A stretch of 64,000 bases of DNA from Anaerolineae bacterium (GTDB taxonomy: Bacteria > Chloroflexota > Anaerolineae > B4-G1 > DUEL01). The notes under the pieces are model-generated. The model had not been told where the DNA came from, did not search any database, and was given only the letters and a program-made list of their open reading frames with translations. Positions 43,320-64,000 of this stretch are shown here, in pieces (positions within the stretch are counted from its first letter, which is position 1; each line of letters starts with the position of its first letter). The translations under genes were made by a program, and so were the position numbers. The stretch is taken from the NCBI GenBank assembly GCA_041082215.1, contig JBDOIF010000152.1, positions 1,235 to 65,234 of the forward strand. The letters run 5' to 3'.

Positions 43320-43334
43320 ACGGAATACGGAGCA

Positions 43335-47193: not shown

Positions 47194-47233
47194 AGATGTT
47201 TCTCCTTCCGTAAGTTGGCATCCAGCAGAAGCC

Positions 47234-47428: not shown

Positions 47429-47447
47429 TATCTCACCTCCGCTATCT

Positions 47448-47520
47448 GCCCCTCCGCCAGCGTCAGCGACAGCGGCGGGGCGGCGAAGAGGTCGGCGCCG
47501 GGTGCGTAGCCCAACAAATC
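47448..47520. repeat. 73-bp direct repeat, copy A (about 88% identical to 48104..48176)
   Basis: cccctccgccagcgtcagcgacagcggcggggcggcg...cccaacaa; the first 38 nt are identical to copy B. Confidence 0.8.
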
Positions 47521-47523
47521 GGC

Positions 47524-47772: not shown

Positions 47773-48083
47773 TCAGGTTCCCAGTAGTCCTCGCTGGGCA
47801 GGTAAGCAGTGATGATTGCCAGATAATCCTTCTTCGGCGCACAGACTACGTGCACCGGACGACCCATATGCCCCCAACCCAGCATCAGGCAACTATGCCC
47901 CCGGGCATCCTCCGGATAGTCTTCTATCACTTCGCCGTAGAGAACCACCGCGCGAACTTCATCCGGAGAAATCATCCGGTCAGGAGCATTCATCTGATGT
48001 AAGGCGTGCGGCAGGTAAAGAATCCGCTTCGCAGCAGCTTCTCTAACCTTCTCCAGAATGCTCCTATGGCTCTCGGGTCTCAT
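47751..48083 (-). CDS. DUF4258-family toxin-like protein
   Basis: MRPESHRSILEKVREAAAKRILYLPHALHQMNAPDRMISPDEV...; its ATG (48083..48081) overlaps the TGA of the upstream fdhB-like gene by 1 nt. Confidence 0.6.
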   Translation of the reverse strand: MRPESHRSILEKVREAAAKRILYLPHALHQMNAPDRMISPDEVRAVVLYGEVIEDYPEDARGHSCLMLGWGHMGRPVHVVCAPKKDYLAIITAYLPSEDYWEPDWRTRKR

Positions 48084-48913
48084 CACTCCATACCTACCAT
48101 CGGCCCCTCCGCCAGCGTCAGCGACAGCGGCGGGGCGGCGGCGAGGTCCGCTCCTGGCTCGTACCCCAACAACTCCCCCACATCGCGCCGGATCAGGTCG
48201 TAGAGGACGGTCAGCGGGATGTGGGCCGGGCAGGTCAGTTCGCACTGGCGGCAGCCGACGCAGCGGGCCGCCATGTGCATGGCCCGGATAAGGTGGAAGG
48301 ACGGGAAGGGCGGGGCCAGCACCCCCGGCTCCACCCAGAGCGGGTCCTCCAGCGCGCAGGCCTCGCAGAAGCACTCCGGGCAGATGTTGCGGCAGCCGTA
48401 GCACTTGATGCATTTGGCGAACTGCTCCCGCCAGAAGGCCCAGCGCTCCGCCCAATCCATACTCTCGTACCGGGCGATGATGGGGTTGGGCGAGCCAGCG
48501 AGAGCTGGCGTCCCCAGCGCCACGGCTTGAGGCCAGCCCTCCGTCTTCGGGAAGGGGGCATCGCAGTGGCACGCCTCCGCCTCCTCCGCGGTGCAGGCCA
48601 CCCCCAGGATGTACAGGCGCTCGGGGTCTATCTGATTCCGCTTGGCCATCTCCACCAGCGCGCGCAGATCGCAGGCACGGGCGACAATGCCGAAGCGGGC
48701 CTGCGGGTAGCGCTTCTGGAGCAGGGAGACGACGGACGCCAGAGGGTAGCGAGGGGAGAGAACCAGTTCGGAGAGGTCATCTCCCTGGCGGAAGAGATAC
48801 GGCGCGGTGCCCACAGCCGTCCGCCGCAGGCCGACAACGCCGTCCAGTTCAGGAAGTTTCTCCGCCACGTGGGCGCGCAGGGTGTCCAAAAGGTCGTTAT
48901 CGGTCATCGGCAA
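48083..48913 (-). CDS. FrhB/FdhB-family iron-sulfur protein (putative formate dehydrogenase beta / electron-transfer subunit)
   Basis: An FrhB_FdhB-like core (FGIVARACDLRALVEMAKRNQIDPERLYILGVAC) and two C-terminal Cys clusters (CIKCYGCRNICPECFCEAC; CVGCRQCELTCP). Its last ~25 codons are encoded by repeat copy B. Confidence 0.5.
   Translation of the reverse strand: MPMTDNDLLDTLRAHVAEKLPELDGVVGLRRTAVGTAPYLFRQGDDLSELVLSPRYPLASVVSLLQKRYPQARFGIVARACDLRALVEMAKRNQIDPERLYILGVACTAEEAEACHCDAPFPKTEGWPQAVALGTPALAGSPNPIIARYESMDWAERWAFWREQFAKCIKCYGCRNICPECFCEACALEDPLWVEPGVLAPPFPSFHLIRAMHMAARCVGCRQCELTCPAHIPLTVLYDLIRRDVGELLGYEPGADLAAAPPLSLTLAEGPMVGME
48104..48176. repeat. 73-bp direct repeat, copy B, forming the 3' end of the fdhB-like gene
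   Basis: See copy A; together they bracket the YgiT/DUF4258 cassette. Confidence 0.8.
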
Positions 48914-48929
48914 ATACTCCCCATAGAGA

Positions 48930-49316: not shown

Positions 49317-49677
49317 ACAGGGTCAAGCCCTTTTCCAGAATTTCTCTAATGAAGAAATCGCCTTCCGCCAGAGCCTGCTGGATTTCCGCGGGCGTTCTGA
49401 CCAGAATATCCACCGGAAAGGGGCGGGGGCGCAGCAGGCGGGAGACCTTCAGGTACCGCTCGACGGGGGGGGCCACGCTCTCCATCACCACCAGCAGGTC
49501 CACATCGCTATCAGTTGTGGCTCCACCCCGAGCATAGGAACCAAAGAGGACGATTTTCTCTGGCTGCAGCGCATCGGCCAGCCGCCGGATCAGCGCGTGA
49601 AAGGCTCGGGCGTCCACTTCTGGAAACCCCCGGGCCCGAATCGGGGTGGGAAGATCTACAGCCGCTCGTTCAGCCAT
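49300..49677 (-). CDS. Nucleotidyltransferase (MNT) antitoxin
   Basis: LFGSYARGGATTDSDVDLLVV; start uncertain (set at MAERAAV). Confidence 0.65.
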   Translation of the reverse strand: MAERAAVDLPTPIRARGFPEVDARAFHALIRRLADALQPEKIVLFGSYARGGATTDSDVDLLVVMESVAPPVERYLKVSRLLRPRPFPVDILVRTPAEIQQALAEGDFFIREILEKGLTLYERHS

Positions 49678-50063
49678 TCCGAGTGCTCCCCCAGCCAGCG
49701 CCGGTAAGCCGAAGCGACCGCCTCCAGGTCGGTCAGGCGCTGGCTGCAAATCTCGTACAATTCCTCGGGACTCACCTCGTGGTAAAAGTGAACCAGCCGG
49801 TTTCTGTAGCCAGCCAGTATGCGCAACAGAGCCGCTTCTTCGGGAGAAAGAACAGCCTGCTCTTCCAGCCGAATAGCGATCTCCCAGTATTCGCTTACAC
49901 CGGTCCCGAAGCCCTTCGCCAGAATATACCGGCCCAGGTCCAGCAGGGCCTCCAGCGCCCGGTGCAGGCAGGATTCCGCTGTCCAGAGATTGCGCCGATC
50001 GGCGAAAAAAGCATCCCGGTCGGTCAGGGGCAGAGAGCGGATTTCCCCGATCATCCGCTCCAC
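49656..50063 (-). CDS. hepT: HepT-like (DUF86) HEPN toxin
   Basis: RNLWTAESCLHRALEALLDLGRYILAK...YRNRLVHFY; R-x4-HxY motif. Confidence 0.75.
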   Translation of the reverse strand: MERMIGEIRSLPLTDRDAFFADRRNLWTAESCLHRALEALLDLGRYILAKGFGTGVSEYWEIAIRLEEQAVLSPEEAALLRILAGYRNRLVHFYHEVSPEELYEICSQRLTDLEAVASAYRRWLGEHSEWLNERL

Positions 50064-50109
50064 CCAGGCCAGACGATCCGCACTACACGCCGGGAAAGGG
50101 TGCCAGGAG

Positions 50110-50538
50110 TCATACCGGTTTTCCCAGGATCAACGCGATGCGCTCCCGCTCCAGCGGGGCGAGATCCCCCGCACGGCGCAGGACGTAGAGGTCGTACTCG
50201 TCGGCGTCGTCCTCGTCGCGGGCGTGGAGGCGCTCACCCCGGATAATCTCCGCTGCCAGGAAGGGGTCCGCGTCGTCCAGCGAGACCAGGTCCACCCTAT
50301 GGACGCCGAAGAGGTCCTCCAGGGCAATCGCCAGCCGGACCTTGTCGTGGACGGAGAGCCGGAGTCCCCGCGCGGGCTTCACCCCGATGTCCAGGTCGGA
50401 CGGGCCCGGGGTCAGAGCCGGGAGTCCCCCCTCCAGCCACGCCCGGGCCTCCCCGGCCCGGCTGCCGAAGGCATAGAGGATGTCCACGCCGAAGGATTCG
50501 CAGAGTTGCCGGAGCCGCACGCTCCGGTCCTCGTTCAT
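50110..50538 (-). CDS. mntA: MntA-like nucleotidyltransferase antitoxin
   Basis: ILYAFGSRAG...SDLDIGV. Confidence 0.75.
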   Translation of the reverse strand: MNEDRSVRLRQLCESFGVDILYAFGSRAGEARAWLEGGLPALTPGPSDLDIGVKPARGLRLSVHDKVRLAIALEDLFGVHRVDLVSLDDADPFLAAEIIRGERLHARDEDDADEYDLYVLRRAGDLAPLERERIALILGKPV

Positions 50539-50855: not shown

Positions 50856-51275
50856 CTACAGGCCCAGTTCCTGCTCGATCGGCCCCAGGGCGCGGATGGT
50901 CTCCACGAACTCGGCGGTCACCTGGGCAAACTTGGGGGCCTCCGCCGAGGAGACCCAGTCCAGTCGCAGCCGCTGGGGGTTGATGCCCACGTAGGAAAGC
51001 AGGTTACGCAGCAGGGGCATCCGTTTGGCGGTGCGGTGATTACCGTTGATGTAATGGCAGTCGCCGATGTGGCAGCCCAGCACCAGCACCCCGTCGGCGC
51101 CAGCGCGAAAGGCCCGCAGCACCATTTCCGGCGACACCCGCCCGGAGCACATCACCCGGATGGGCAGGACGTTGGGCGGCGACTTCATCCGCGCGATGCC
51201 CGCGTTATCGGCTCCGGCGTAGGAGCACCAGTTGCACAGAAAAGCGACAATGCGAGGTTGAAAAACTTCGCTCAT
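50856..51275 (-). CDS. mvhD: MvhD/FlxD-type hydrogenase iron-sulfur subunit (HdrA-associated)
   Basis: IVAFLCNWCSYAGAD...VMCSGRVSPEMVLRAF..GADGVLVLGCHIGDCHY. Confidence 0.85.
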   Translation of the reverse strand: MSEVFQPRIVAFLCNWCSYAGADNAGIARMKSPPNVLPIRVMCSGRVSPEMVLRAFRAGADGVLVLGCHIGDCHYINGNHRTAKRMPLLRNLLSYVGINPQRLRLDWVSSAEAPKFAQVTAEFVETIRALGPIEQELGL

Positions 51276-51301
51276 AGCGTACTCCGTATTGCGTATTCCG
51301 T

Positions 51302-51802
51302 TTATGACATGGGCACTTCGCTCAGGAGTTCAGAAAGTTCGGCATCAGGGTCGGTGGTAGAGTAGAGATAGGGCGCGCTACTTTCACACAGTTGTACGAT
51401 ACCGGTGGTTTCCCGCTCCTCAGGAATAATAGAGAGGAGCAGGCGGACAATCTGGGTCAGCAGGTGGAGCCGATGAGCCAGGACAGCCTCTTTCAGGCCA
51501 TGGCGCCCCTCGTAGTACCAGGTTCGGGCCTCGCGGGCGGAGCCCAGGGCGTACTCGTAGAATCGGGCCCGCTCCTTCCCGGACCGGCGGCTGTACCCTT
51601 CGGCGATGTTGGCGGCGATAGAACCCAGGGCCCGATATAACTGGTCGGCCAGGCCGCGCATCCGGGCATCCTCAGCCAGCACCGAAACATCGTGCCAGCC
51701 CAGGTCGGCAGCGAAGAGGGCCAGCCGGTACACCCGCATCTGCCAGAGCGGATCCGCCGTAATCTCCGACGGCACGCTCTGCAACCACTCCTCGTGCGTC
51801 AT
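51302..51802 (-). CDS. Four-helix-bundle protein (TIGR02436 / 23S-rRNA-IVS-protein family)
   Basis: MTHEEWLQS...YRLALFAADL...LGSIAANIAEGYSRRSGKERARFYEYALGSAREARTWYYEG is characteristic of this family; the tracked N-terminal 24 aa are repeat-derived. Confidence 0.7.
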   Translation of the reverse strand: MTHEEWLQSVPSEITADPLWQMRVYRLALFAADLGWHDVSVLAEDARMRGLADQLYRALGSIAANIAEGYSRRSGKERARFYEYALGSAREARTWYYEGRHGLKEAVLAHRLHLLTQIVRLLLSIIPEERETTGIVQLCESSAPYLYSTTDPDAELSELLSEVPMS

Positions 51803-51825
51803 CGCCCACCTCCAACGGAACATGG

Positions 51826-51870
51826 AGTACGGAATACGTGCTGCGTACTGCGTATTCCGTATTCCGTGCT
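51826..51870. repeat. TACGGAA-family palindromic repeat hairpin between the 4HB gene and hdrA
   Basis: ggagtacggaatacgTGCTGCGTACTGcgtattccgtattccgtgctcc. Confidence 0.6.
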
Positions 51871-51877
51871 CCACGCG

Positions 51878-53833
51878 CTACACCCAGACGCCCGCTAAGA
51901 GGCCCTCTATCTGCGCCACAATCTGCTCGTCGGTAAAGTGAAGGCCGGTGATGGCATGGGATGGGCAGGTGGCGACGCAGGTGCCACATCCCTGACACAG
52001 CGCCGGGTTTACCTGCGCTTTCCCTTCCACGCGGGAGATCGCGGAGTAAGGGCAGGCCAGGATGCACTCACCGCACCCCACGCAGGCCTCCCGATCCACC
52101 ACGGCGACGGTGGGCGATATGGTGACCTCGCCCTGGTTGAACAACCGCACCACCTCCAGCGCCGCCGCCCCGGCATGGGCCACCGTGTCGGGGATGTCCC
52201 GTGGCCCCTGGGCACAGCCGGCCAGGAAGACCCCCGCCGTGGCCGTCTCCACCGGCCGCAGTTTGGGGTGCGCTTCGGCAAACCAGCCGTCGGGTGTGCG
52301 GCCCAGGCCGAACAACGGGGCGATGCGGTCCACATCGGGCTGCGGCTCGATGGCCGACTCCAGGATCACCAGGTCCACGTCCACAAACACCAGCCGTCCC
52401 AGGTTGGCATCCTCTCCCTTCACGCGGAGTTTGCCATCCGGCATGACTTCCACCTCGGCTCCCTTGCCCCGGACGAAGACGACTCCCTCCTCCTGCACCC
52501 GCTCGTAGAACTCCTCATAGGCCTTGCCGAAGGCCCGCATATCCATATAGAAATCGTACACCTCGGCTCCGGTCTTATCCCGCACCTGGTGGGCGTGCTT
52601 GAGGGCGTACATGCAACAGATGCGGGAGCAGTAAGGGTGAGCGTTCTCGTCGCGGCTGCCGACGCAATGGATGATGGCCACCCGCTGGGGCTTCTTCCCC
52701 TCGGCGGTGACGATCTCCCCCCCGGTGGGGCCGGTGGCGCTGGTGAGCCGCTCAAACTGTAGCCCGGTGATGATATTGGGCGAGAGGCCGTAGGAATACT
52801 GCGGAAGTTTCGCGGGGTCCCACATCGCAAACCCGGTCGCCACGATGATGGCGCCGACCTGAACTTCGAGCAGTTGATCCTCCTGGGTGTAATCAATCGC
52901 CCCGGTGGGGCAGAACTTCTCGCAGACCTTACACTTGCCCTGGGTAAAGAACCGGCAGTTCTCCCGGTCAATCACCGGGATGTTCGGGATGGCCTGGGCG
53001 AAGGGGCGGTAGATGGCCTTCCGCTTCCCCATCCCCGCCTCGAAGGCTGTATCCACCACTTTGGTGGGGCACTTCTCCTGGCAGAGGCCACAGCCGGTGC
53101 ACTTCTCCTCATCCACCGACCGCGCCCGTTTGCGGATGCGGGCGGTGAAATGGCCCACATAGCCGGAGACCTCTTCAACTTCACTGTAGGTCAGGAGGGT
53201 GATGTTGGGATGCCGACCGGCATCCATCATCTTGGGGCCCAGGATTCAGGTACTACAGTCCAGCGTGGGGAAAGTCTTATCCAACTGGGCCATATGGCCG
53301 CCGATGGATGGCTCCCGTTCCACCAGATAGACCGGGTAGCCCGCGTCAGCGATGGAGAGGGCGGCCTGGATGCCGGCGATGCCGCCGCCCACCACCAGCG
53401 CCGCTTTTGTCACCGGCTCCCGCCGGGGCTCCAGCGGGGCCTGGTATGCCACCCGGAAAACCGCCGACCGCACCAGCCGCTTCGCCTTCTCCGTGGCTGC
53501 CTCTTTATCATCGGTGATCCAGGAGACATGCTCGCGGATGTTGGCCATCTGGAAGAAATAGGGGTTGAGCCCGGCGGCCCCCAGGGCTCGCTGGAAGGTC
53601 GTCTCGTGCATCCGGGGGGTGCAGGACGCCACCACGACCCGGTTCAGGCCCAGGTTGCGGATGTCCTCCTGGATCATCAACTGGCCCGGCTCGGAGCACA
53701 TGTACTTGTACACCCGGGCGACGGCGACGCCAGGCAGTTTAGAAGCCATCTCTGCGACCGCCTCCACATCCACCGTGGCCGAGATATTGATGCCGCATTC
53801 ACAGATGTAGACGCCGATTCGGGGTTGCTCCAT
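51878..53833 (-). CDS. hdrA: Heterodisulfide reductase subunit A, selenocysteine-containing paralog 1; in-frame TGA at 53246..53248
   Basis: Tracked ORFs 53246..53971 and 51878..53230 are in one frame: ...GGGIAGIQAAL...KTFPTLDCST-[TGA]-ILGPKMMDAGRHPNITLLTYSEV..., which aligns with the HdrA consensus KTFPTLDCS-x-C-ILxPKMVEVxRHPNI with TGA at the Cys position. Also an FAD Rossmann motif, four or more ferredoxin Cys clusters, and an N-terminal YICECG. Start set at MEQPRIGVY. Confidence 0.85.
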
Positions 53834-53865: not shown

Positions 53866-55065
53866 TCAGGACTCTGCAGCCTGAATAGACTGCCAGAGCA
53901 GTTCCATTACATCCATTGCCCGCACGCGGATGCGGTTCTGCCGCGCTCCTTCCTGGAGGGTGCGCTTGCACTGCTGGCAGGCGGACGCCAGGATGCTGGC
54001 TCCTGTCGCCTGGATCTGGGCCAGCCGTTTTGCCGCGACGCCCATTGTGACAGCAGGGTCAGCCATCTCTACATCTCCGCCGCCGCCACAGCACAGCGCG
54101 CTCTGGCGAGACATAGACATCTCTCTCAATTCCAGCCCCGGAATGCGGGTCAGTATTTCCCGGGGTGGATCATATACGCCGCTCTTGCGCCCCAGGTCAC
54201 AGGGGTCGTGATAGGTCACCACGCCTTCCACTGGTCCCAATGGCGGGGCGGATTGTGCCATTCGTTCTGCCAGGAACTCGGTAGCATGCTGGAAATGGAG
54301 CCCTCGCACATCCGCCATCTCCGGATACAGGTGGGACCAGGCGTAGTAACAGGACGGACAGGTGAAGACCACCCTTTCCGCGCCCACCCTGCGCACCTGT
54401 TCCAGGTTGTGTCGGGCGATTTCCGCCATCTGATCCCGCAGTCCCGCGACATAGAGCGGGTATCCGCAACACCACTCGTCTCCGCCCAGGGTGGTAAACT
54501 CCACCTCTGCCCGCTCCAGCACTTTGACCGTTGCCTGAGGGATGGAGTACGCGCGCGGGTAGAACGACCCCACGCATCCCACAAAATAAACGACCTCCGC
54601 CGTTCGCCGCAGGGGTTGCACGCCCACCGGTGGGTCGGGCATATTCTGGCTCCATACCAGACGGTTGGCGTTCTCGTCGCCGGAGATGTTGTACTGGCTG
54701 GTGACGGTCTGGCTGACTCGCAGCAGCAGTTGGGGGACTTCCAGGCCCTGGCGCTGGACGTACTCCCGAAGGGCCACCATCGTATCCGTGATCTGGATGC
54801 CCCGGGGGCAACGGACCTGGCAGGACTTACAAACCGTGCAGAGCCAGAAGGTGCGGCTGGTCAATACCTCCGCCGTTAGTCCCAGCTGCACCATTCGCCA
54901 CAACTGACGCGGGGTATAATCCATCGCGTAGGAGGTGGGACAGGAAGCGGAGCATGTGCCGCACTGGATGCAGGAGAGAATCTTTTCCCAGCGGCCGGGG
55001 GTCACCTGCTGAGCAAACGTCCGGTCCGCCTGGGCGAGGTCCAGGATTTCAGGGGGGTTGGTCAT
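53866..55065 (-). CDS. HdrC-HdrB fusion protein (HdrD/GlpC-like; 2x[4Fe-4S] + two CCG domains)
   Basis: N-terminal CIQCGTCSASCP...CTVCKSCQVRCP; C-terminal CCG motifs (DEWCCGYP..., LCCGGGG). Confidence 0.8.
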   Translation of the reverse strand: MTNPPEILDLAQADRTFAQQVTPGRWEKILSCIQCGTCSASCPTSYAMDYTPRQLWRMVQLGLTAEVLTSRTFWLCTVCKSCQVRCPRGIQITDTMVALREYVQRQGLEVPQLLLRVSQTVTSQYNISGDENANRLVWSQNMPDPPVGVQPLRRTAEVVYFVGCVGSFYPRAYSIPQATVKVLERAEVEFTTLGGDEWCCGYPLYVAGLRDQMAEIARHNLEQVRRVGAERVVFTCPSCYYAWSHLYPEMADVRGLHFQHATEFLAERMAQSAPPLGPVEGVVTYHDPCDLGRKSGVYDPPREILTRIPGLELREMSMSRQSALCCGGGGDVEMADPAVTMGVAAKRLAQIQATGASILASACQQCKRTLQEGARQNRIRVRAMDVMELLWQSIQAAES

Positions 55066-55256: not shown

Positions 55257-56522
55257 TTATCCGCCCGCCTGGGGCAAAAAGCGGCGAACGGTGTGCAGAA
55301 GATGGTCCGGGTCTATCGGTTTGCTGATCCAGGCGTCTATCGGGATGTGCAGGGTATCGGGCAGAAGGCCAGCGTACTGGCTGCTATCAATGCTGGAGAC
55401 CATCACCACCGGGATAGGCCGCAGGGCCGGGTCCGCCGCGATTTCCTGGGCGACACCCGCGCCTTCCAGCGGCGTCGCCATCATCACGTCCAGCATGACC
55501 AGGTCCGGCTTCTCCTCCCGCATCATCTTCAACGCCTGCTGCCCGTTGCTGGCGGTCGCGACCTGATACCCCGCTTTGCTGAGAATCCGCCGGGAGAGGT
55601 CCACGAAGTCCGGGTCATCGTCCACCACCAGAATCCTCAGCGCCACTCCTGGCTTGACCTCCACCTTCTTCTTCGGTCGCAGATAGATGAACCAGTAGGC
55701 CAGGCCGACAAAGCCTGCGCCGCCGATGATGTTCCCGATGGTCACCGGCAGCAGATTTCTCAGGAAGAAGCCCCCCCAGGTAAGCGCGGCGAAGTCGGCG
55801 GGCGTCTTGCCGATGGCTTCCCAGAAAGCCGCTGGTGCCCATGACTTGATGAAAAGGCCGATCGGGATGAGGTACATATTGGCGATACTGTGCTCAAACC
55901 CGGCGGCGACAAAGGCAGTAATGGGGAAGATGATGGAGAGGATTTTATCCGTTGTGGACCGGGCCGACGCGCAGAGCCACACCGCCAGGCAGACCAGCGC
56001 ATTACACATAATGCCCAGCGCGGTGGCCTGAAGGAATCCCAGGCTGCATTTCGCGTTGGCGATAGAGAGTGCGTTCAATCCCAGCGCGCCCGAGGCAAAG
56101 GTGTACTGGCTGGTAAGAAACATCACCAGCGCGGTGAAGATAGAACCGATGAAGTTGCCCGCGTAGACAATGGCCCAGTTGCGCAGGAGTTGGACAGTGG
56201 TGACCCGGCGGCTGGCGTAGGCCATCACAATGAGATTGTTGCCGGTGAACAGTTCTGCCCCAGCGACCACGACCGCGATCAGGCCGAGGCAGAAGACCAG
56301 GCCGCCTGCCAGCCGGATCAGTCCATACGGCACACCAGCCGCGCTCAAGCCGGTCGTCACGGTGGTCAGGAAGATACCACCCGTTCCGATAAACGCGCCG
56401 GCCAGAACGGCAAGAGCGAACATCGTCCAGAAATCCAGGTTCGCTTTGGTGACCCCCACCTCTTCCATACGGCTGGCCATTTTCGCCGGTGGGAAGGCAT
56501 CAATTTGCAATTCACTGCTCAT
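55257..56522 (-). CDS. Formate/nitrite transporter (FocA/FNT) fused to a C-terminal response-regulator receiver domain
   Basis: An FNT core (FLTTVTTGLSAAG...LFTGNN...AAGFEHSIANMY) followed by RILVVDDDPDFVDLSRRILSKAGYQVATASNGQQALKMMREEKPDLVMLDVMM..., i.e. a CheY-like REC with the phospho-acceptor Asp context. Confidence 0.75.
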   Translation of the reverse strand: MSSELQIDAFPPAKMASRMEEVGVTKANLDFWTMFALAVLAGAFIGTGGIFLTTVTTGLSAAGVPYGLIRLAGGLVFCLGLIAVVVAGAELFTGNNLIVMAYASRRVTTVQLLRNWAIVYAGNFIGSIFTALVMFLTSQYTFASGALGLNALSIANAKCSLGFLQATALGIMCNALVCLAVWLCASARSTTDKILSIIFPITAFVAAGFEHSIANMYLIPIGLFIKSWAPAAFWEAIGKTPADFAALTWGGFFLRNLLPVTIGNIIGGAGFVGLAYWFIYLRPKKKVEVKPGVALRILVVDDDPDFVDLSRRILSKAGYQVATASNGQQALKMMREEKPDLVMLDVMMATPLEGAGVAQEIAADPALRPIPVVMVSSIDSSQYAGLLPDTLHIPIDAWISKPIDPDHLLHTVRRFLPQAGG

Positions 56523-56590: not shown

Positions 56591-56779
56591 TTATTGTGCC
56601 ACCAGTTCCACCACGTCCATCACCCGGATACGGAGTTTCTCGTGCCGGGCTGCGCCCGCCAGGGTCCGCTTGCACTGATGGCAGTTGGAGAGCAGGATTT
56701 TCGCGCCTGTGACCTGTACCTCACCGATGCGCCGCTGGGGGACCGCTGCGACCAGTTCTTTGCGCCTCTGCGGTGGGTT
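56591..56779 (-). pseudogene. In-frame HdrB C-terminal remnant following the hdrC TGA (deletion scar, or part of a recoded read-through)
   Basis: After the TGA at 56780..56782 the same frame continues NPPQRRKELVAAVPQRRIGEVQVTGAKILLSNCHQCKRTLAGAARHEKLRIRVMDVVELVAQ*, homologous to the C-terminus of the HdrCB fusion (ILASACQQCKRTLQEGARQNRIRVRAMDVMELLWQ). Confidence 0.45.
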
Positions 56780-57160
56780 TCATCCTGTGGCCTTTCCCAG
56801 GACCGCCCGCACCCGCCCGGGTGGGGCCAGCTCCACCGGTTCCAATCCCCACAGCGCGCGCCCTTCATTGACCTCCGGGCCCACACACAGGGCATAGCCA
56901 CAGGCCAGGACATTCTCAAAGGCCTGTCGGTACCCCTCCGGCGCCGACCTTCGGCGGCGTGCTTCCATCATCAACTCGTGGATGTCCACCCCGGCGGGGC
57001 AGGCCTCCTGGCAGCGCCAGCAGGAGGTGCAGAGCCACACATCGTAAACAGGATCACCGGCCAGGAAGGAGACGATGGCGTGCCCTCCCACCGTCTCCAC
57101 CGGGCAGACGGTGACACAGAGGCCACAGCCCAAACACTCGTCCGGTCGGTTCACTGCCAT
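56780..57160 (-). CDS. hdrC: Heterodisulfide reductase subunit C-like ferredoxin
   Basis: CLGCGLCVTVCP...CTSCWRCQEACP. Confidence 0.75.
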   Translation of the reverse strand: MAVNRPDECLGCGLCVTVCPVETVGGHAIVSFLAGDPVYDVWLCTSCWRCQEACPAGVDIHELMMEARRRRSAPEGYRQAFENVLACGYALCVGPEVNEGRALWGLEPVELAPPGRVRAVLGKATG

Positions 57161-58005
57161 TCCTCCTTCCGCAGCCCCAGCCGCTCCGCCGGAAGCCCCA
57201 TTGCCAGCCCGATCAACTGTGGCAGAAGGAGCGCTCGCCTGCGCAGGGCTTCGTCATTGCCCGCAATCTTGCGCTGAAAGCGACGGAGGAGCAAATGGCA
57301 GTTCCCGCAAGCATAGAGCAGCAGGTCGGCCTCTTGCACCGCCTCGAGTCTCCGCCGCCCGGCCCTCAGGGCCAGTTCTGGATCGGCCAGATAGACCGTC
57401 GCCCCGCAGCACTCGTCCTCCCCGCCATACTCCAGGACCTCCGCGCCGGTCAGCTCCACCAGGCGGCGAAGGCTCTGTGGTTCCACCGGGTCGTCGAAGC
57501 CCATCACCTCGCCGGGGCGAAAGGCCTGGCAGGGGTTGATGAACGCCACCCGGAAGGGTAGCGGGCGGACGATCCGCGCCCGCACTCCCTCCTCCCGCTC
57601 GGCCAGCAACCGGATCAGGTGGATCGGCTCCACCTCCCCCGCGACCGAAAGCCCCATTGGCTCCAGCCGCCGGTTCGCCTCGGTCCGCACCCTGGGATCG
57701 GCCCGGAGCGCGCGAGCGGCGCGGGCCAGGGTGTTGGTGCAACCCCCGCACACTGTGACCACCTGCCGGTGGCCCATCCGCTCCACCAGCGCCAGGTTGT
57801 AGGCTGCCAGGTAAACCCAATCAGCGGTGAAGGATTCGACGACGGGCGAGCCACAACAGGCGGCCTGCTGGACCAGCTCCAGTTCCATTCCCAGCGCCTC
57901 CAGCACCGCCCGGGTGGCCGCCTCGTATTCGGGCATGCGCTGGAGGACCAGGCAGCCGGGGTAGAAGGCAAATTGCAGGTTACAGGTTGCAGACTGCAGA
58001 GCCAA
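57151..58005 (-). CDS. hdrB: Heterodisulfide reductase subunit B-like (two CCG domains)
   Basis: FYPGC...CCGSP and INPCQ...CCGAT motifs; the N-terminal ~10 aa overlap a CAGGTTR repeat (57975..58002), so the start is uncertain. Confidence 0.75.
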   Translation of the reverse strand: MALQSATCNLQFAFYPGCLVLQRMPEYEAATRAVLEALGMELELVQQAACCGSPVVESFTADWVYLAAYNLALVERMGHRQVVTVCGGCTNTLARAARALRADPRVRTEANRRLEPMGLSVAGEVEPIHLIRLLAEREEGVRARIVRPLPFRVAFINPCQAFRPGEVMGFDDPVEPQSLRRLVELTGAEVLEYGGEDECCGATVYLADPELALRAGRRRLEAVQEADLLLYACGNCHLLLRRFQRKIAGNDEALRRRALLLPQLIGLAMGLPAERLGLRKEEWQ

Positions 58006-58087: not shown

Positions 58088-59128
58088 TTACAGCGCCACC
58101 ACCCGGGCGAAGTCCGCCGGGGTCACGCCGGGGGTCTCGATATGGTACTCGGCATAGAAGCGGGAGATGATCGGCTCCACTTCCTCCAGCCTTGCCCCTA
58201 TCAGTGCGCTTTCCAGATCTGTCAGCCGCTCCGCTGGATAGAAGAAGAAGTCGCCAGAGAGGGAGACACTCTCGATCACTCCTTCTCGCACCTCGGCCGT
58301 GGCGCGGATGAGGCCGCCGGGGGCTTTGTAGGCCCGCTGAACCACCTGGACGCCGGAGCGGATGGTGACGGCACGGCCTTCCTGGGGCCGGCCGTGGCGG
58401 AACAGCCACTCGTCGGTGAGCATCCTCTGCGCCAGCCGGTCCGCCTCCGCCCGCCATTCGGCATCCACCTCCGTCACCACCTCCATCGGCCCCAGCACAT
58501 CGGCGAACCTCTCCGCCAGCAGGTCCCACAGTTCCTCGCGCGGCGGCGCTGTGCCCAGCTCCCTCCGGATAGTGGAGAGATTATCCTGCAGGGTCTTGTA
58601 GACTTTATCGCGGAACTTCTCGTCGGGCACCCGCAGCACCCGTACCATCGTCTCGTAGTCAAAATCCACAATCAGGTTGCCGACGAAGACGATGTAGTCG
58701 CCGATCTCGGCCACGCCGTTGCCGGAAATCTTGCGGCCGTTGGCGATGATGTCGTTGACCGGCTTGTACTCGGCGGGGATGCCCAGAGCCCGGTAGGCGG
58801 CGATGGGGGCCTGGAGAAACTTCTGGTAGAACGCTGCCTTGTCCTTCGGGACCAGCGGGTTATCCTTGTGGATGATTAACTGGTAGAAGAGTTGTTCGCC
58901 ATCCAGATAGACGGCGCCCCCTCCCACCTCTCGCCGGAAGACCGGAATGCCGCGCTCCCGGCAGTAGTCCAGGTCCACCTCCTGCGCGGCGTCCTGGAAG
59001 TAGCCGATGCAGACGTAGGGGGATGCAGGGGAAAGCAGATTCAGCCCCTCCCGCCCGATGCGAGGAAGGGCATGGTAGAGAATTTGGGAGTCCTGCCAGG
59101 GTACGGTCTCGAGGCGGTAGAGTTTCAT
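58088..59128 (-). CDS. lplA: Lipoate-protein ligase A-like (LplA/LipB/BirA catalytic fold + LplA C-terminal domain)
   Basis: MKLYRLETVPWQDSQILYHAL...RREVGGGAVYLDGEQL...K(I)SGNG lysine motif; AGGAGG RBS before the ATG at 59128. The tracked N-terminal 11 aa are rejected. Confidence 0.7.
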   Translation of the reverse strand: MKLYRLETVPWQDSQILYHALPRIGREGLNLLSPASPYVCIGYFQDAAQEVDLDYCRERGIPVFRREVGGGAVYLDGEQLFYQLIIHKDNPLVPKDKAAFYQKFLQAPIAAYRALGIPAEYKPVNDIIANGRKISGNGVAEIGDYIVFVGNLIVDFDYETMVRVLRVPDEKFRDKVYKTLQDNLSTIRRELGTAPPREELWDLLAERFADVLGPMEVVTEVDAEWRAEADRLAQRMLTDEWLFRHGRPQEGRAVTIRSGVQVVQRAYKAPGGLIRATAEVREGVIESVSLSGDFFFYPAERLTDLESALIGARLEEVEPIISRFYAEYHIETPGVTPADFARVVAL

Positions 59129-59149: not shown

Positions 59150-59238
59150 GTCGGGCGTCAAACGTCAGGCGTCAAACGTCAAACGTCAAACGTCAGGCGT
59201 CAAACGTCAAACGTCAAACGTCAAACGTCAGGCATCAA
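59150..59238. repeat. Tandem array of about 13 GTCAAAC / GTCAGGC heptamers
   Basis: gtcgggcgtcaaacgtcaggcgtcaaacgtcaaacgtcaaacgtcaggc...gtcaggcatcaacc, between mvhD2 and lplA. Confidence 0.85.
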
Positions 59239-59656
59239 CCGCTGCTCGCATCTCCAGCGGGCCCAGCCGGCGCACCTTTTCGGTGAACTCCCGCACCGTC
59301 TGGGCAAACAGCTCCCCCTCCGAGGAAGAGACCCACTTGACCAGGAATCGCTCCGGCTCGATGCCGGTGAACGCCAGCAGGGCCTTGAGGACCGGCATTC
59401 GGCGGGCGGTGCGGTGGTTGCCGGTGGCGTAGTGGCAGTCGCCGATATGGCAACCCAGCACCATTACCCCATCGGCTCCCTCTTTGAAAGCGCGGATCAC
59501 CAGCTCCGGCGCGACCCGTCCCGAGCAGGGGACGCGGATGATCTTGAGGTTGGGAGGGTACTTCAGCCGGGTCGCCCCGGCCAGGTCCGCTCCGGCATAA
59601 CTGCACCAGTTGCAGAGGAAACCGATGATCTTCGGCTCGTAAGCCTGCTCGCTCAT
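59228..59656 (-). CDS. mvhD: MvhD/FlxD-type iron-sulfur subunit, paralog 2
   Basis: IIGFLCNWCSYAGADLAG...VPCSGRVAPELVIRAF..GADGVMVLGCHIGDCHY. Confidence 0.85.
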   Translation of the reverse strand: MSEQAYEPKIIGFLCNWCSYAGADLAGATRLKYPPNLKIIRVPCSGRVAPELVIRAFKEGADGVMVLGCHIGDCHYATGNHRTARRMPVLKALLAFTGIEPERFLVKWVSSSEGELFAQTVREFTEKVRRLGPLEMRAAVDA

Positions 59657-59665: not shown

Positions 59666-59715
59666 CTACGGAATACGCAGTACGTACTACGTATTGCGTG
59701 TCGCGTATTGCGCCC
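59666..59715. repeat. TACGGAA/TATTGCG-family repeat overlapping the hdrA2 3' end
   Basis: ctacggaatacgcagtacgtactacgtattgcgtgtcgcgtattgcgc; it encodes the last residues (AMRAQYATRNT) of the tracked HdrA2 ORF. Confidence 0.6.
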
Positions 59716-61678
59716 GCATCGCGAAGATCGCCCCCATCATCTCCGAAACCAGTTGCCGGTCGGTGAAGTGACGGAGGGTGATCGCTTTGGAAGGGCAGGC
59801 TCCGGCGCAGGTGCCGCACCCCTTGCAGAGCGCATCGATCACATGGGCGACCCTGCGCTCTTTCAGGTATTCGATGGCCGCGTACGGACAGGACTGGATA
59901 CACTGCCCGCAGCCGGTGCACATCAGCTCGTCCACGAGGGCGGTGGCCGACTCTACCTTCACCTCTCCCTGGCCGATGAGGGAAAGGACCCGCGCCGCCG
60001 CCGCCGAGCCCTGGGCCACCGAGTCCGGGATGTCCTTCGGCCCCTGAGCGCACCCGGCGACGAGCACCCCGTCGGTCATCGTCGCCACCGGGTCCAGCTT
60101 GGGGTGCTTTTCCCTGAACCACCCGTCGGCGTCGGTGCTGATGCCGAAGAGACGGGCCACTTCCCGGCTGTCGTGGCGCGGTTCCAGGCCGATCGCCAGC
60201 ACCACCATATCCACCGGCAGCCGTCGCTGCCGCCCCACCAGGGAATCGTCGAACTGGACGACCAGTTTTCCCTCCTCCTCCGGCCCGCGTGCAGCGTCCG
60301 TCACCTGGGCCACCTTCCCGCGGATGAAGTGGATCCCCTCATCCAGCATCCGGTGGTAGAACTCCTCATATAGCTTGCCGGGGGCGCGAATGTCAATATA
60401 GAAGTTATATACCTCGGCGTGGGTCTTATGGCGGATCAGGTGGGCCAGCTTCAGGGAGTACATACAGCAGACCCGGGAGCAGTATTCGTGGTACTTCTTG
60501 TCCCGGCTGCCCACGCAGTGGATGATGGCCACCTGTCGGGGGACCGTTTCCCCATCCCGCAGGACCACCTTGCCGCCGGTAGGACCAGCCCCGCTGAGCA
60601 TCCGCTCCATCTCCAGGCTGGTGAAGACGTTGGGGAAACGGCCGTAGCCGTACTGGGGAATCCGTCGGGCGTCGAAGGGATCGAAGCCGGTGGCGAGGAT
60701 GATGTTGCCCACCTGGACCTCCAGGATGGTGTCCTGCTGGTTGTAGTCTATGGCGCCGGTGGGGCAGACCTTTTCACAGAGGCGGCAACGGCCTTTGGTA
60801 AACCAGAGGCAGTTGTCGCGGTCAATGACGGGGACGGGGGGCACTGCCTGGGCGAAGGGGCGGTAGACCGCCTTCCGATACCCCAGCCCCGCCTCGTAGG
60901 CGGCGTCAACGACTTTCGTGGGGCACTTTTCCTCACACGTACCGCATCCGGTGCACTTCTCTGCATCCACCGACCGGGCCCGAACGCGGATGCGGACCAC
61001 AAAGTTGCCCACATAGCCGGAGACGCTTTCCACCTCGCTGTAGGTCAGGAGATTGATGTTGGGATGCCGACCGGCATCCATCATTTTGGGCCCGAGAATT
61101 CAGGCACTACAGTCGAGCGTGGGGAAGGTCTCATCCAGTTGAGCCATCCGGCCGCCGATGGAAGGCTCCCGTTCCACCAGATAGACCGGGTAGCCGGCGT
61201 TGGCCAGCTCCAGGGCCGCCTGGATGCCGGTGATCCCCCCGCCGACGACCAGCGTGGCCGGGTTGATGCGCACCCGGTTTTCCTCCAGGGGCTGGTGGTG
61301 GCGCACCCTTAGGACCGCCGCCTCGACCAGGGCTTTTGCCTTCCCGGTGGCGATCTCGGGGTCATCGTGGACCCAGGAACACTGTTCGCGGATGTTGGCC
61401 ATCTCGAAGAAGTAGGGGTTGAGACCTGCCTCTGCCACAGCTCGCTGGAAGGTCGGCTCGTGCATCCGCGGGGTGCAGGAAGCCACCACCACCCGGTCCA
61501 GTCCCAGCTCCTGAATGTCCTTTTTGATCAGCTCCTGGCCCAGGCTGGAACACATGAAGCGGTAGTCGCGGGCCACGGCCACCCCCGGCAGGTCGGCGGC
61601 CCAGCGGGCCACCTCCGCCACGTCTACCACACCGGCGATGTTGGAACCACAGTGGCAGATGTAGACGCCGATCTTCAT
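59687..61678 (-). CDS. hdrA: Heterodisulfide reductase subunit A, selenocysteine-containing paralog 2; in-frame TGA at 61100..61102
   Basis: Tracked ORFs 61100..61708 and 59687..61084 share a frame: ...ETFPTLDCSA-[TGA]-ILGPKMMDAGRHPNINLLTYSEV...; the same architecture as paralog 1 (about 75% identity by eye). Start set at MKIGVY. Confidence 0.85.
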
Positions 61679-61753: not shown

Positions 61754-62740
61754 TCAGCGACGGAGCGAAGCGGAGTCGCGCTGTACGGCCGCCAGCGGTT
61801 CGGGCATCGGCAGGCCGGTCCGCTCCCGGCGCGGTTTGCGTTCCGCTGTCTCCTCTTCGGGTGGCGGGTTGCGGAACTTCTCCAGCACCCGTTCCGCCGA
61901 CACGATCTCCTGCCCAAAGCCCAGTTTCTCCGGCTCCAATCCGAAGGCCAGGCCCATCATCTGGGTGAAGTAGAGGACCGGGATGTGGAAATCGGTGCCG
62001 AAGTGGGAGTTGACCTGTCCCTGGTAGGCGTCCAGGTTGAGCTGGCACATCGGGCAGGCAGTGACGAGGGCGTCCACCTCCAGCTTGGCCGCGTTGTAGA
62101 GCAGGTAGTGGATCATCCTGTAGGCGGTCTCGGCGTCCAACTGGGTCATATGGCCGCCGCAGCAGTTGGCCCGCAGGGTGTAATCCACCACCTCCGCCCC
62201 CAGCGTCTCCAGCAGCCGCTCCATCCGCGAGGGGTATTCGAAGTTGTCGCGCCCCTCTGGGCGGACAGTGACACAGCCGTAGTAGGCGGCCAGCCGCAGC
62301 CCCCGCAGCGGCGCCTTCACGTGGGCTCCGATCTCCTCCAGGCTGAAATCCTCCACAACCACCTCCAGCGCGTGGCGGGAGTGGACCCGGCCCGGATCAT
62401 AGTGGAGCTTCCCCGCCGCCAGCGCCTCGTTCACCGCCGCTGCCAGCTTGGGATGGGCAAGCATATTCTTGTCGGTCTTCAGCATATTGTAGTAACAGGC
62501 GGAGCAGGGGGCCACCACCTCCTTCAGGTCGGGGGGCACCAGCGCCAGGTTGCGGGCCACCAGCGCGTAAGCGGGGAGCAGGTCGAGGGAAAAGTACTCC
62601 GTTGCCCCGCAGCAGTTCCAATCGGGGATCTCCACCAGCTCGATCCCCAGAACCTCTGCCACGGCGCGGAAAGACTCGTCGTAGGCCGCAGCGTTCCGTT
62701 CCAGCGAACAACCGGGGTAGTAGGCGTACCGTCTCACCAT
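61754..62740 (-). CDS. hdrB: Heterodisulfide reductase subunit B-like, paralog 3
   Basis: MVRRYAYYPGC...NCCGATE and GCV...NCCGGH CCG motifs; start set at the ATG 62740 (GGGAGGTG RBS), and the long tracked upstream extension is rejected. Confidence 0.8.
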   Translation of the reverse strand: MVRRYAYYPGCSLERNAAAYDESFRAVAEVLGIELVEIPDWNCCGATEYFSLDLLPAYALVARNLALVPPDLKEVVAPCSACYYNMLKTDKNMLAHPKLAAAVNEALAAGKLHYDPGRVHSRHALEVVVEDFSLEEIGAHVKAPLRGLRLAAYYGCVTVRPEGRDNFEYPSRMERLLETLGAEVVDYTLRANCCGGHMTQLDAETAYRMIHYLLYNAAKLEVDALVTACPMCQLNLDAYQGQVNSHFGTDFHIPVLYFTQMMGLAFGLEPEKLGFGQEIVSAERVLEKFRNPPPEEETAERKPRRERTGLPMPEPLAAVQRDSASLRR

Positions 62741-63279
62741 GCACCTCCCAGTTCTTTGGCCCTGCGGAGGATAGCGCGCAGTTGGCGGATGCCCTGGATC
62801 CGTTTGGGCGTGAAGGACATCCGGCCCCGGGTCACCATGCCCAGCATCAGGGGGGACATGCGGATGCTCTGGAGGGGATGGTGGCGAAGGTAGTGCCCGG
62901 TCGCCAGACCCAGTTCGAAACTGCGCCCGTAAGTCTCCACCTGCCCCACGAAGGTCTCGGAGAAGCCGGTGATGGAAGCAGTGTAGTAGCCAGCCTGGAT
63001 GGCCAGCCGCTTGAGCTGGTACATAATGTCTGTGATCGGGATCTCCTGGGGGCAGCGGATGGTGCAGTAGTAGCAGGAGACGCAGAACCAGAAGGTGTTG
63101 CTTTTGAGGACCTCCTCCCGCATTCCGGCCAGGATCATTGCGAAGATCTCCCGCGGCGTGTAGTCCATAGCCGGGCCGGAAGGGCACGACCCGCCACAGG
63201 AACCGCACTGAATACAGGCCCTCAGCCGCTCCCCGCCGGGGATCGCCATCACCTCTTCTAGGAAGCTCTTTTCTGCCAT
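62734..63279 (-). CDS. hdrC: Heterodisulfide reductase subunit C-like, paralog 3
   Basis: CIQCGSCGGSCP...CVSCYYCTIRCP; start set at MAEKSF (could be MARRRD at 63324). Confidence 0.75.
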   Translation of the reverse strand: MAEKSFLEEVMAIPGGERLRACIQCGSCGGSCPSGPAMDYTPREIFAMILAGMREEVLKSNTFWFCVSCYYCTIRCPQEIPITDIMYQLKRLAIQAGYYTASITGFSETFVGQVETYGRSFELGLATGHYLRHHPLQSIRMSPLMLGMVTRGRMSFTPKRIQGIRQLRAILRRAKELGGAW

Positions 63280-63304
63280 ACTCTCCTCCTGATCCGACCG
63301 GCTC

Positions 63305-64000
63305 TTATCCCGCCTCCGTGCCAAAGAGCAGCCTCTCCACTTCCCGTAGCCGCTCCAGTCCTTTCACCTCGAAAGGGAGCAGAGGGAGCTTGACCAGCGT
63401 GATCCGGTCGCCGTACTCCTCCTCCAGCATCTGGAGGTAGGGACGCTGCATCTGTGCCCGTTGCCGCAGGAAATCCCCGTTCGCGTTCAATACCAGGTCG
63501 TTGACGATCATGTACCGGACCTCAAGCCCATACCGGGCCAGGTCCCGGATCACCCGGCGGCTCTGGTAGACCCCCAGAGCTTCGGGGATGGTGACCAGGA
63601 TGAACTCGACATTGGCCGGATCGGTGAAGAAGCGAATCGTCTGCTCCGAGAGGGCCTTCCAGCTCTCGATGATCTCCAGAAAGGGGGTCCTGGAGAGTTT
63701 AAAGGTGTCCCGCACCTCCAGATAGACCTTGGGCGCTACCCGCAGATGTTCCAGGAACCGCTGCGGCAGGCCCAGGAGGCGGAGCGTATCGCCAGCCGGC
63801 GCCGTATCCCAGACGATCATGTCGTAGCGCCGATCCCGTACCCGTTCCAGGATGTAATCCAGCAGAAACTCCTCCTGGATGCCGGGGGCCATAGCCACAT
63901 AATCTACCACCTCGTCATAGGGCAGGTCAATCAACGCCGACGCCGCCTCATACACTTCCGGCCCGAACTTCTCCTTCCAGCGGCGCATCACCTCGTCGGG
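63305..64000 (-). CDS. ArsA/GET3-family ATPase-like protein, C-terminal part (N-terminus beyond window end)
   Basis: MIVWDTAPAGDTLRLLGLP...FILVTIPEALGVYQSRRVIRDLARYGLEVRYMIVNDL resembles the ArsA-type anion-transporting ATPase distal region; the frame is open to the window edge. Confidence 0.5.
   Translation of the reverse strand, partial: PDEVMRRWKEKFGPEVYEAASALIDLPYDEVVDYVAMAPGIQEEFLLDYILERVRDRRYDMIVWDTAPAGDTLRLLGLPQRFLEHLRVAPKVYLEVRDTFKLSRTPFLEIIESWKALSEQTIRFFTDPANVEFILVTIPEALGVYQSRRVIRDLARYGLEVRYMIVNDLVLNANGDFLRQRAQMQRPYLQMLEEEYGDRITLVKLPLLPFEVKGLERLREVERLLFGTEAG

Follow-up and report, generated by a model that had tools for sequence, protein, structure and literature searches.

A lipoate-protein ligase gene within an hdr cluster of an Anaerolineae bacterium suggests a lipoylated protein as disulfide substrate of bacterial Hdr enzymes

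In a 64,000-nucleotide stretch of DNA from an Anaerolineae bacterium (contig JBDOIF010000152.1; the whole stretch is called the window), a gene for a lipoate-protein ligase, here named LplAX, lies among genes for heterodisulfide reductase (Hdr) subunits. In relatives the gene for this ligase is linked to one for a carrier protein similar to the H-protein of glycine cleavage (GcvH), and this ligase-carrier linkage suggests that a lipoylated protein could be the disulfide substrate of bacterial Hdr enzymes. According to the composite model that we favour, LplAX would lipoylate a GcvH-type carrier whose dithiol/disulfide would be the redox substrate of Hdr; we put the probability of this model at about 50%. 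Its parts differ in strength: LplAX very probably works as a ligase that uses ATP to attach lipoate (or octanoate) to a protein, its cognate acceptor is likely to be the GcvH-type carrier, and the idea that this carrier is the substrate of Hdr falls a little short of an even chance.

The lplA open reading frame (ORF) begins with an ATG at position 59128, preceded 5 nt upstream by AGGAGG, and ends with a TAA stop at 58088-58090; a longer frame starting at a TTG (59161) was rejected, as both the homologues and the ribosome-binding site favour the ATG. The databases hold a protein of 346 aa identical to LplAX. The initial annotation had described a full-length LplA with a catalytic and a C-terminal domain, and this description proved right, coordinates included: LplAX matched the Pfam families LplA-B_cat (E 6e-40, 137.7 bits against a cut-off of 27) and Lip_prot_lig_C (E 5e-7). 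The closest solved structures are all lipoate-protein ligases, from 1vqz (E 4e-26) to matches at 1e-18, and include 6jom, 5iby, 5ij6, 8cri and the LplA and LplB of Thermoplasma acidophilum. The loop RRxxGGGxV(Y/F)LD and the catalytic-lysine motif RK(I/V)(S/A)G are both intact, and RK..G and GGG were invariant among the 25 clade members compared. In the PDB alignment GRKISGNG of LplAX pairs with GKKFCGNA of 1vqz, and RREVGGGAVYLD pairs with RRISGGGAVYHD. Two histidines of the E. coli type are replaced (HD to LD and HHG to FVG); a loss of ligase function on this account was rejected, since both changes also occur in 6jom, a Mycoplasma ligase that is functional.

The affiliation of LplAX to the known ligase clades was judged by profile (hidden Markov model) and PDB bit scores, which serve as proxies. 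Canonical LplA forms clade 2 of these ligases, and clade 3, of archaeal origin, includes sLpl(AB), with TK90_0642 and Hden_0686 as characterised members, and co-occurs with LipS1/S2 (PMC10332631). LplAX scored below the cut-offs of TIGR00545, the equivalog model of canonical LplA (150 bits against 280), and of the NCBIfam LplA_large model (92 against 480), and passed that of the NCBIfam LplB model NF053749 (66 against 65). Its C-terminal domain matched T. acidophilum LplB (3r07_C) over the full length, including the PGVxPxD tail (E 6e-13, 52 bits), whereas the best bacterial clade-2 ligase reached only E 2e-3 when the accessory domain was searched separately. When the catalytic domain was searched alone, 1vqz scored 81.6 bits, LplA of T. 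acidophilum 72.7 and that of E. coli 23; the E. coli structure 1x2g scored just 22-23 bits against LplAX. Summed over LplA and LplB, the T. acidophilum ligase reached about 120-125 bits, as compared with 95 for the best clade-2 structure, again as a proxy. These scores point towards the archaeal-origin clade 3. By the same scores LplAX is a new member of the lipoate-ligase family, in a clade distinct from canonical housekeeping LplA, an alternative that the initial annotation had left standing.

More than 120 clusters of homologues are 72-87% identical to LplAX, all of them from Anaerolineae or Thermoflexales-type Chloroflexota. An exhaustive search of representatives gave 311 clusters (at 50% identity) with E<=1e-30, along which identity fell smoothly from 56% to 32% with no sharp clade border; the name LplAX is accordingly operational and stands for at least 45% identity plus synteny. 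So defined, it is a conserved ligase clade of anaerobic Chloroflexota, Desulfobacterota and WOR-3. In one homologue cluster (P0054; 76% identity, 493 aa) the ligase is part of a fusion with a response-regulator receiver domain.

A scan of one genome per species yielded 38 loci with proteins 45-87% identical to LplAX, from Chloroflexota, Desulfobacterota (Desulfobacteraceae, Desulfatiglandales, Syntrophaceae), Thermodesulfobacteriota and WOR-3. HdrD, HdrB, HdrA or MvhD was encoded in the retrieved flank at no fewer than 26 of these loci and a GcvH-like protein at no fewer than 14; the counts are lower bounds, many contigs being short. Both kinds of neighbour were nearly always co-oriented with the ligase gene. 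Precomputed Pfam annotation of the contexts agreed with these results, and the tightest unit was GcvH-LplAX. The order at locus L003 is HdrCBA(::NfnB-like)-MvhD-GcvH-NarI/QmoC-like-HdrD-LplAX-HdrD-HdrA-MvhD-FdhB-like-FdhA, and that at L046 is cytochrome c-cytochrome b-NarI/cytochrome c-HdrD-GcvH-LplAX-FocA::REC-HdrD-HdrA-MvhD-FdhB-like-FdhA; the latter is the layout of the window with the carrier added, HdrD-GcvH lying immediately upstream of the ligase. At L043 and L047 we found HdrD/B-HdrA-MvhD-[NiFe] small and large subunits-GcvH-(cytochrome)-NarI-HdrD, at L044, L021 and L022 GcvH-CCG-HdrA-NuoE/NuoF/NuoG-like-LplAX, and in the Desulfobacterota loci L028, L030 and L037 cytochrome c/NarI-GlcD-HdrD-GcvH-HdrD-LplAX. 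The pair of carrier and ligase is thus constant and the electron-input modules vary, being of the formate dehydrogenase (Fdh), Mvh [NiFe] hydrogenase, NuoEF-like or GlcD-like kind; a NarI/cytochrome-HdrD membrane module is often present as well. Genes gcvT, gcvP and lpd were found neither in any Pfam-annotated carrier or ligase context nor in the window. Between Chloroflexota and Desulfobacterota, LplAX is 57% identical, the carrier 44%, HdrD 40% and the membrane subunit 27%.

All 15 module-linked carriers compared keep the lipoyl lysine, in the motif ESGKW(V/L)G(R/K); the canonical ESVKA (as ESVKAASD) was seen in a single outgroup carrier and in none of the module-linked ones.

Genes for lipoate assembly accompany the ligase in some relatives. 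At L028 (Desulfatiglandales) LplAX is followed by LplA2::DUF116, a LipT-like flavoprotein of the geranylgeranyl-reductase family, LipS1 and LipS2, the two radical-SAM proteins scoring just under their cut-offs (214 bits against 230 for LipS1, 231 against 270 for LipS2), and L031 has HdrD-LplAX-LipS1. In L050 (Chloroflexota) the order is rpsT-GcvH-LplAX-LplA2::DUF116-LipT-LipS2-LipS1-CCG(284 aa)-Fer4(126 aa), so that a full lipoate-assembly operon headed by LplAX exists at two loci, L028 and L050. The terminal CCG protein of L050 is 72% identical to HdrB2 of the window and its Fer4 protein 63% to HdrC2; L014 shows LplAX-HdrB2-HdrC2-HdrD. Because the L050 operon ends in orthologues of HdrB2C2 and L014 shares the order, lplA-hdrB2-hdrC2 of the window is best read as the two ends of a carrier-maturation operon whose middle part, together with the carrier gene, is not at this locus. 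The initial annotation had placed the ligase between two hdr modules in the same orientation. The position was borne out, with hdrC1B1A1-mvhD upstream and hdrB2C2 downstream, all on the minus strand; hdr genes do lie on both sides, but for the pair immediately downstream the synteny is with a relative's lipoate-assembly operon and not with an energy module. The second ligase, LplA2, which combines an LplA catalytic and an LplB-like domain with a C-terminal DUF116, is encoded at 11059-12630 of L028 and 10677-12350 of L050, in both cases between LplAX and LipT/LipS1/LipS2.

Two features of the window mark rearrangements at this locus. The relic of hdrD behind hdrC2 is, by comparison, a deletion scar joining two gene blocks, because L014 keeps an intact HdrD at the same place; a reading of HdrC2 plus this fragment as a selenocysteine (Sec) protein was rejected, as the fragment corresponds to the last ~60 residues of HdrD, complete in L014. 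The other is the repeat array that fills the mvhD-lplA spacer. Heptanucleotide tandem arrays lie at 59156-59230, 43944-43993, 51278-51301, 51851-51867, 45475-45504 and 43318-43343, with units such as TTTGACG, ACGCAAT and GAATACG. All are in spacers save that at 43944-43993, which lies inside fdhA and gives an in-frame insert of 12 residues that orthologues do not have. The mvhD-lplA spacers of the relatives L013 and L012 carry arrays with other unit sequences, and L015 and L029 have MvhD-GcvH-LplA, that is, a GcvH-like gene where the window has its repeat array.

The surrounding genes are listed in Table 1. The window has a G+C content of ~64%, and third-position G+C reveals a run of minus-strand genes from 64000 down to 43366. 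In the order of transcription these encode an ArsA-like ATPase, HdrC1, HdrB1, HdrA1, MvhD and, after a 100-nt spacer, LplA, HdrB2 and HdrC2; then come the HdrD relic, FocA::REC, HdrD, HdrA2, the four-helix-bundle gene, MvhD2, toxin-antitoxin-like genes, the FdhB-like subunit, a low-GC insert, FdhA, HypA and MobA. The cluster is, by its gene content, of the canonical formate-linked, selenium-dependent Hdr/Mvh type. HdrA1 (LDCSA-U-ILGPKM) and HdrA2 have in-frame TGA codons at conserved Sec positions, within LDCS(A/T)-U-ILGPKM. Each of the three Sec genes was split in two by gene callers, in the window and at all related loci. A recoded stop codon as a general explanation of adjacent in-frame ORFs was rejected, since only three junctions are TGA codons at Sec sites, the remaining ones being normal gene borders with various stop codons. 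FocA::REC likewise follows LplAX at L046, L006, L007 and L013, so that this fusion is kept beside the ligase at L046 and at several Thermoflexales-like loci.

Table 1. Features of the ligase-containing gene cluster, in the order of transcription (window positions).
Feature	Position	Strand	Evidence
ArsA/Get3-like ATPase, cluster head, cut by window end	63305..64000	-	Pfam ArsA_ATPase E 6e-35; same place in L003
HdrC1, 2x[4Fe-4S] ferredoxin-like	62734..63324	-	Pfam Fer4_8/17/9; 81% identical to L003 HdrC
HdrB1, two CCG domains	61754..62740	-	Pfam CCG E 3e-22; start codon checked; 74% identical to L003 HdrB
HdrA1, full-length bifurcating type, Sec TGA 61100-61102	59687..61678	-	5odc_A 731 bits, residues 2-649
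MvhD (FlpD) electron-transfer subunit, module 1	59228..59656	-	Pfam FlpD E 8e-54
Heptanucleotide repeat TTTGACG x10.7 (minus strand), fills mvhD-lplA spacer	59156..59230	.	TRF score 122
LplAX, two-domain lipoate/octanoate-protein ligase, Lpl(AB) type, 346 aa	58088..59128	-	Pfam, PDB and NCBIfam matches
HdrB2, CCG-domain protein, 284 aa, directly downstream of ligase	57151..58005	-	Pfam CCG x2, E 7e-27
HdrC2, 126-aa 2x[4Fe-4S] protein, HdrB2 partner	56783..57160	-	NCBIfam CoB_CoM_SS_C E 3e-11
HdrD C-terminus relic, 62 codons, in frame behind hdrC2 TGA	56594..56779	-	tblastn 67% to L003 HdrD residues 347-401
FocA-type formate/nitrite transporter fused to C-terminal receiver domain (FocA::REC)	55257..56522	-	Form_Nir_trans E 5e-79, Response_reg E 1e-20
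HdrD, fused Fer4 + 2 CCG, module 2	53866..55065	-	Pfam CCG E 1e-33 + Fer4_8
HdrA2, Sec TGA 53246-53248	51878..53833	-	In-frame TGA at conserved position
Four-helix-bundle gene ('23S rRNA intervening sequence'-type, TIGR02436), between hdrA2 and mvhD2	51302..51874	-	
MvhD2	50856..51275	-	83% identical to L003 MvhD2; phmmer
FdhB-like Fe-S subunit	48083..48913	-	69-93% identical to L003, L001, L018 equivalents; MvhD2-FdhA position kept
Formate dehydrogenase alpha (FdhA), Sec TGA 45043-45045 (CARL-U-HAP)	43366..45471	-	Relatives: Molybdop_Fe4S4, Molybdopterin, Molydop_binding

Some details of this region stand apart from the ligase. The four-helix-bundle gene is flanked by GAATACG heptamer repeats and is not present in the orthologous clusters L003 and L001. 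The low-GC insert (0.54 against ~0.64, with a dip at 46001-48000) separates fdhA from the fdhB-like gene; a 559-aa protein with a DGQQR motif encoded at 45514-47193 on the minus strand is, as judged by eye only, a candidate DUF262/GmrSD-like nuclease, and small toxin-antitoxin-like and nucleotidyltransferase ORFs at 47751-50538 were likewise recognised by eye only. In L003 a HydG/AsrB-like NAD(P)-binding Fe-S flavoprotein gene precedes that of the ArsA/Get3-family ATPase (L003 805-1728), and HdrA1 has an NfnB/GltD-like insertion of ~465 residues. The rest of the window (43 kb) contains housekeeping genes. At 6212-10278, some 50 kb away from the hdr cluster, are genes for an Ldh_2-family protein (malate/L-lactate dehydrogenase-type), a pterin-binding-domain protein and an EtfA/EtfB pair; at L024 a pterin-binding gene directly precedes LplAX. 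The sole Rfam match in the window was a bacterial large signal recognition particle RNA at 14123-14386 on the minus strand (RF01854, 172 bits), and the Rfam and tRNA scans of the window gave nothing relevant to the ligase cluster. No terminator-like site was seen on the minus strand across mvhD-lplA-hdrB2 in a promoter and terminator scan, a weak test whose output was overall not above background.

A lipoate-ligase gene inside an hdr cluster had been taken in the initial annotation as the signature of the sulfur-oxidising sHdr system, in which the ligase would mature an LbpA carrier presenting sulfane sulfur to an Hdr-like complex. For this cluster we regard such a system, or a hybrid with it, as highly improbable. 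The gene order hdrC1-B1-A-x-...-B2-C2 plus ligase does superficially resemble shdrC1B1AHC2B2 with slpl(AB), relatives tie LplAX to LipS1, LipS2 and LipT as sHdr organisms do, and a rhodanese gene lies near the L046 cluster on the opposite strand. The sHdrA protein is, however, short (~340 aa) and has neither ferredoxin nor MvhD-binding domains, whereas HdrA1 (~663 aa) is of the bifurcating kind, with ferredoxin domains and Sec, and aligns end to end with methanogen HdrA (5odc_A); with Hyphomicrobium sHdrA (6tjr_A) the alignment was partial (171 bits, residues 322-567). The set is that of canonical HdrABC-MvhD, namely full-length HdrA, MvhD, a two-CCG HdrB and HdrC, with Sec at the DCSxC/U-IL position, and the partners are MvhD, Fdh and [NiFe] hydrogenase. 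The hosts of LplAX, moreover, belong to anaerobic lineages. The components that would complete an sHdr system did not turn up in the 64-kb window: tblastn and phmmer found no GcvH/LbpA homologue there, LipS1/S2 and LipT were absent from it, and no DsrE (DsrE3), TusA or rhodanese was among its Pfam-scanned genes, a few small ORFs lying outside that scan. Finally, the relatives' carrier is far closer to GcvH than is LbpA (reported as 26-35% identical to E. coli GcvH; PMC6067878). The further suggestion of a lipoylated carrier in a reductive or formate-linked context found support in the relatives, which pair a GcvH-type carrier with formate-, H2- or NADH-linked Hdr; the window itself has no carrier.

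In the model that we favour, LplAX would charge the ESGKW carrier with lipoate, or with octanoate later sulfurated by LipS1/S2 or LipA where present, and the lipoamide dithiol/disulfide of the carrier would act as a protein-bound 'heterodisulfide' for the CCG-domain proteins HdrB and HdrD. Electrons from formate would pass from the Sec-containing FdhA through the FdhB-like subunit and MvhD2 to HdrA2, which would bifurcate them to ferredoxin and, via HdrD, to the lipoyl disulfide; HdrC1B1A1-MvhD would be another soluble module that uses this carrier. The NarI/cytochrome-HdrD membrane module of relatives would join the carrier to the quinone pool, like HdrDE of methanogens and DsrMK, and HdrB2C2, as part of the carrier-maturation gene set, may reduce or service the new lipoyl group. 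A precedent comes from the sHdr system, where the lipoylated GcvH-like LbpA is essential and is modified by its own cluster-encoded ligase alone (PMC6067878, PMC10332631). If the model holds in this organism, the carrier gene must lie elsewhere in its genome. In a broader form, which we regard as possible and advance tentatively, canonical (non-sHdr) HdrB/HdrD enzymes of anaerobic Chloroflexota and Desulfobacterota would have as their physiological dithiol/disulfide substrate a lipoylated protein of the GcvH type, equivalent to CoM-S-S-CoB but bound to protein, reduced by the soluble Fdh-, Mvh-, NuoEF- and GlcD-linked bifurcating modules and re-oxidised by the quinone-linked NarI/cytochrome-HdrD, with LplAX as the dedicated ligase and HdrB2C2 in maturation or repair.

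Several points weigh against the model. The 64-kb window contains no GcvH-like gene, and 12 of the 38 loci have no Hdr neighbour, though many of those contigs are short. At L045 and L050 the arrangement rpsT-GcvH-LplAX, without energy modules, looks like housekeeping, and in the close relatives L009 (LplAX-CutA-LipA) and probably L010 the ligase lies near canonical lipA. At L028 and L050 LplAX would have to share its task with the paralogue LplA2::DUF116, which lies next to LipT/LipS1/LipS2. The carrier may simply be the H-protein of the cell, because it is ~40% identical to the H-proteins of Thermus thermophilus and Thermotoga maritima, with the lysine aligned, and scores 133-142 bits with the NCBIfam GcvH subfamily model, whose cut-off is 117, the L028 carrier being also above the TIGR00527 equivalog cut-off. 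Every functional link proposed here is drawn from synteny. The lipoamide couple (~-290 mV) would also be a much weaker high-potential acceptor for bifurcation than the heterodisulfide of coenzyme M (CoM) and coenzyme B (CoB), CoM-S-S-CoB.

These points feed three other explanations. If the ESGKW protein were a true H-protein of glycine cleavage or synthesis, LplAX would be its ordinary maturation ligase and the Hdr, Fdh and Mvh modules would replace dihydrolipoyl dehydrogenase, coupling the reduction or oxidation of the H-protein to formate, H2 or ferredoxin. This physiological variant of our model could serve, for instance, a reductive glycine pathway or the anaerobic oxidation of glycine. 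The similarity of the carrier to H-proteins fits this idea, as do the formate dehydrogenase and formate transporter in the same cluster and the absence of lpd from every context examined. Genes gcvT and gcvP are usually clustered with gcvH, yet they stood beside the carrier in 0 of ~25 contexts; the lysine motif is unlike that of canonical H-proteins, and glycine metabolism does not easily account for partners of the GlcD and NarI/cytochrome kinds, so that we consider the idea rather unlikely, though with a real chance. It is unlikely, too, that LplAX is the general lipoate salvage ligase of the lineage, placed among hdr genes by inherited order without functional coupling. The loci with lipA or rpsT mentioned above, the unrelated neighbours at several loci and the lack of a carrier gene in the window would agree with this, but adjacency to CCG proteins persists between Chloroflexota and Desulfobacterota (45-60% identity) despite rearrangement and exchange of modules, the genes are co-oriented and tightly spaced, and the redox subunits of the modules are no better conserved between phyla than LplAX (27-44% against 57%). 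That same conservation, unusual for a maturation enzyme, could instead mean that LplAX is an amidotransferase or a carrier-docking or regulatory subunit and that LplA2::DUF116 is the real ligase; LplA2 separates LplAX from LipT/LipS at L028 and L050, and it scores higher with TIGR00545 (175 bits against 127-150). We hold this to be quite improbable, as LplAX has lost neither the GGG loop nor the catalytic lysine nor the accessory (LplB) domain of the adenylation type, and is the sole ligase gene at the locus in the window and at most Thermoflexales-like loci; LipL and LipM, furthermore, are single-domain proteins of a different architecture.

In anaerobic bioenergetics, the thiol/disulfide substrate of the many HdrABC, HdrD and MvhD complexes in bacteria that are not methanogens is a long-standing gap, which DsrC fills for sulfate reducers only. 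A module of carrier, ligase and CCG enzyme with swappable inputs offers a concrete candidate for this substrate. The association of LplAX, carrier and Hdr was found described in no open-access full text, within an incomplete coverage that returned just the work on sHdr and LbpA; the theme of Hdr plus lipoyl carrier, known before from sulfur oxidisers alone, looks to have a new form here. If the model is true, the non-classical role of lipoate would extend from aerobic sulfur oxidisers (sHdr-LbpA) to reductive, formate- and H2-linked electron bifurcation. For annotation, the names 'Lipoate-protein ligase A' and 'glycine cleavage H protein' in these lineages are not evidence for glycine cleavage or 2-oxoacid dehydrogenases, nor does an lplA inside hdr genes amount to sulfur oxidation.

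Among the known systems, the bipartite LplA-LplB of T. acidophilum (2ars, 3r07) shares with LplAX the LplB-type accessory domain; in LplAX the parts are fused in one polypeptide, and identity is low. The relatives' carrier resembles the H-protein of glycine cleavage as a close GcvH homologue with a lipoyl lysine; unlike the H/L-protein system, it has the ESGKW motif, gcvT, gcvP and lpd are never adjacent, and its putative partners are Fe-S/CCG proteins instead of an NAD-linked flavoprotein. The sHdr-LbpA system of Hyphomicrobium denitrificans and Thioalkalivibrio (PMC6067878, PMC10332631) likewise ties a GcvH-homologous carrier and a cluster-encoded Lpl(AB) ligase to CCG-containing Hdr proteins, and LipS1/LipS2/LipT genes are attached in the relatives L028, L031 and L050. 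In contrast to it, the Hdr proteins here are of the bifurcating HdrABC-MvhD/HdrD type with Sec, sulfurtransferases are lacking, the hosts are anaerobic, the partners are Fdh, [NiFe] hydrogenase, NuoEF-like, GlcD-like and NarI/cytochrome-HdrD proteins, the carrier is nearer to true GcvH, and the window itself has neither carrier nor LipS genes. The methanogen complexes MvhADG-HdrABC and FdhAB-HdrABC are matched by the full-length alignment of HdrA1 with 5odc_A, by MvhD, HdrB and HdrC, by Sec in HdrA and by the formate and H2 input modules, and HdrDE of methanogens by the relatives' separate membrane module of b-type cytochrome and HdrD. The hosts here are bacteria, the window showed no genes for the biosynthesis of CoM or CoB, and the proposed substrate is a lipoylated protein where methanogens have the small-molecule heterodisulfide CoM-S-S-CoB. 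In sulfate reducers, DsrC with DsrMK(JOP) already provides a case in which a protein dithiol/disulfide (or trisulfide) is the substrate of an HdrD-like CCG subunit on a NarI-type cytochrome. Unlike the cysteine pair of DsrC, the redox group proposed for the LplAX-linked carrier would be a lipoyl group carried by a GcvH fold and dependent on a dedicated ligase.

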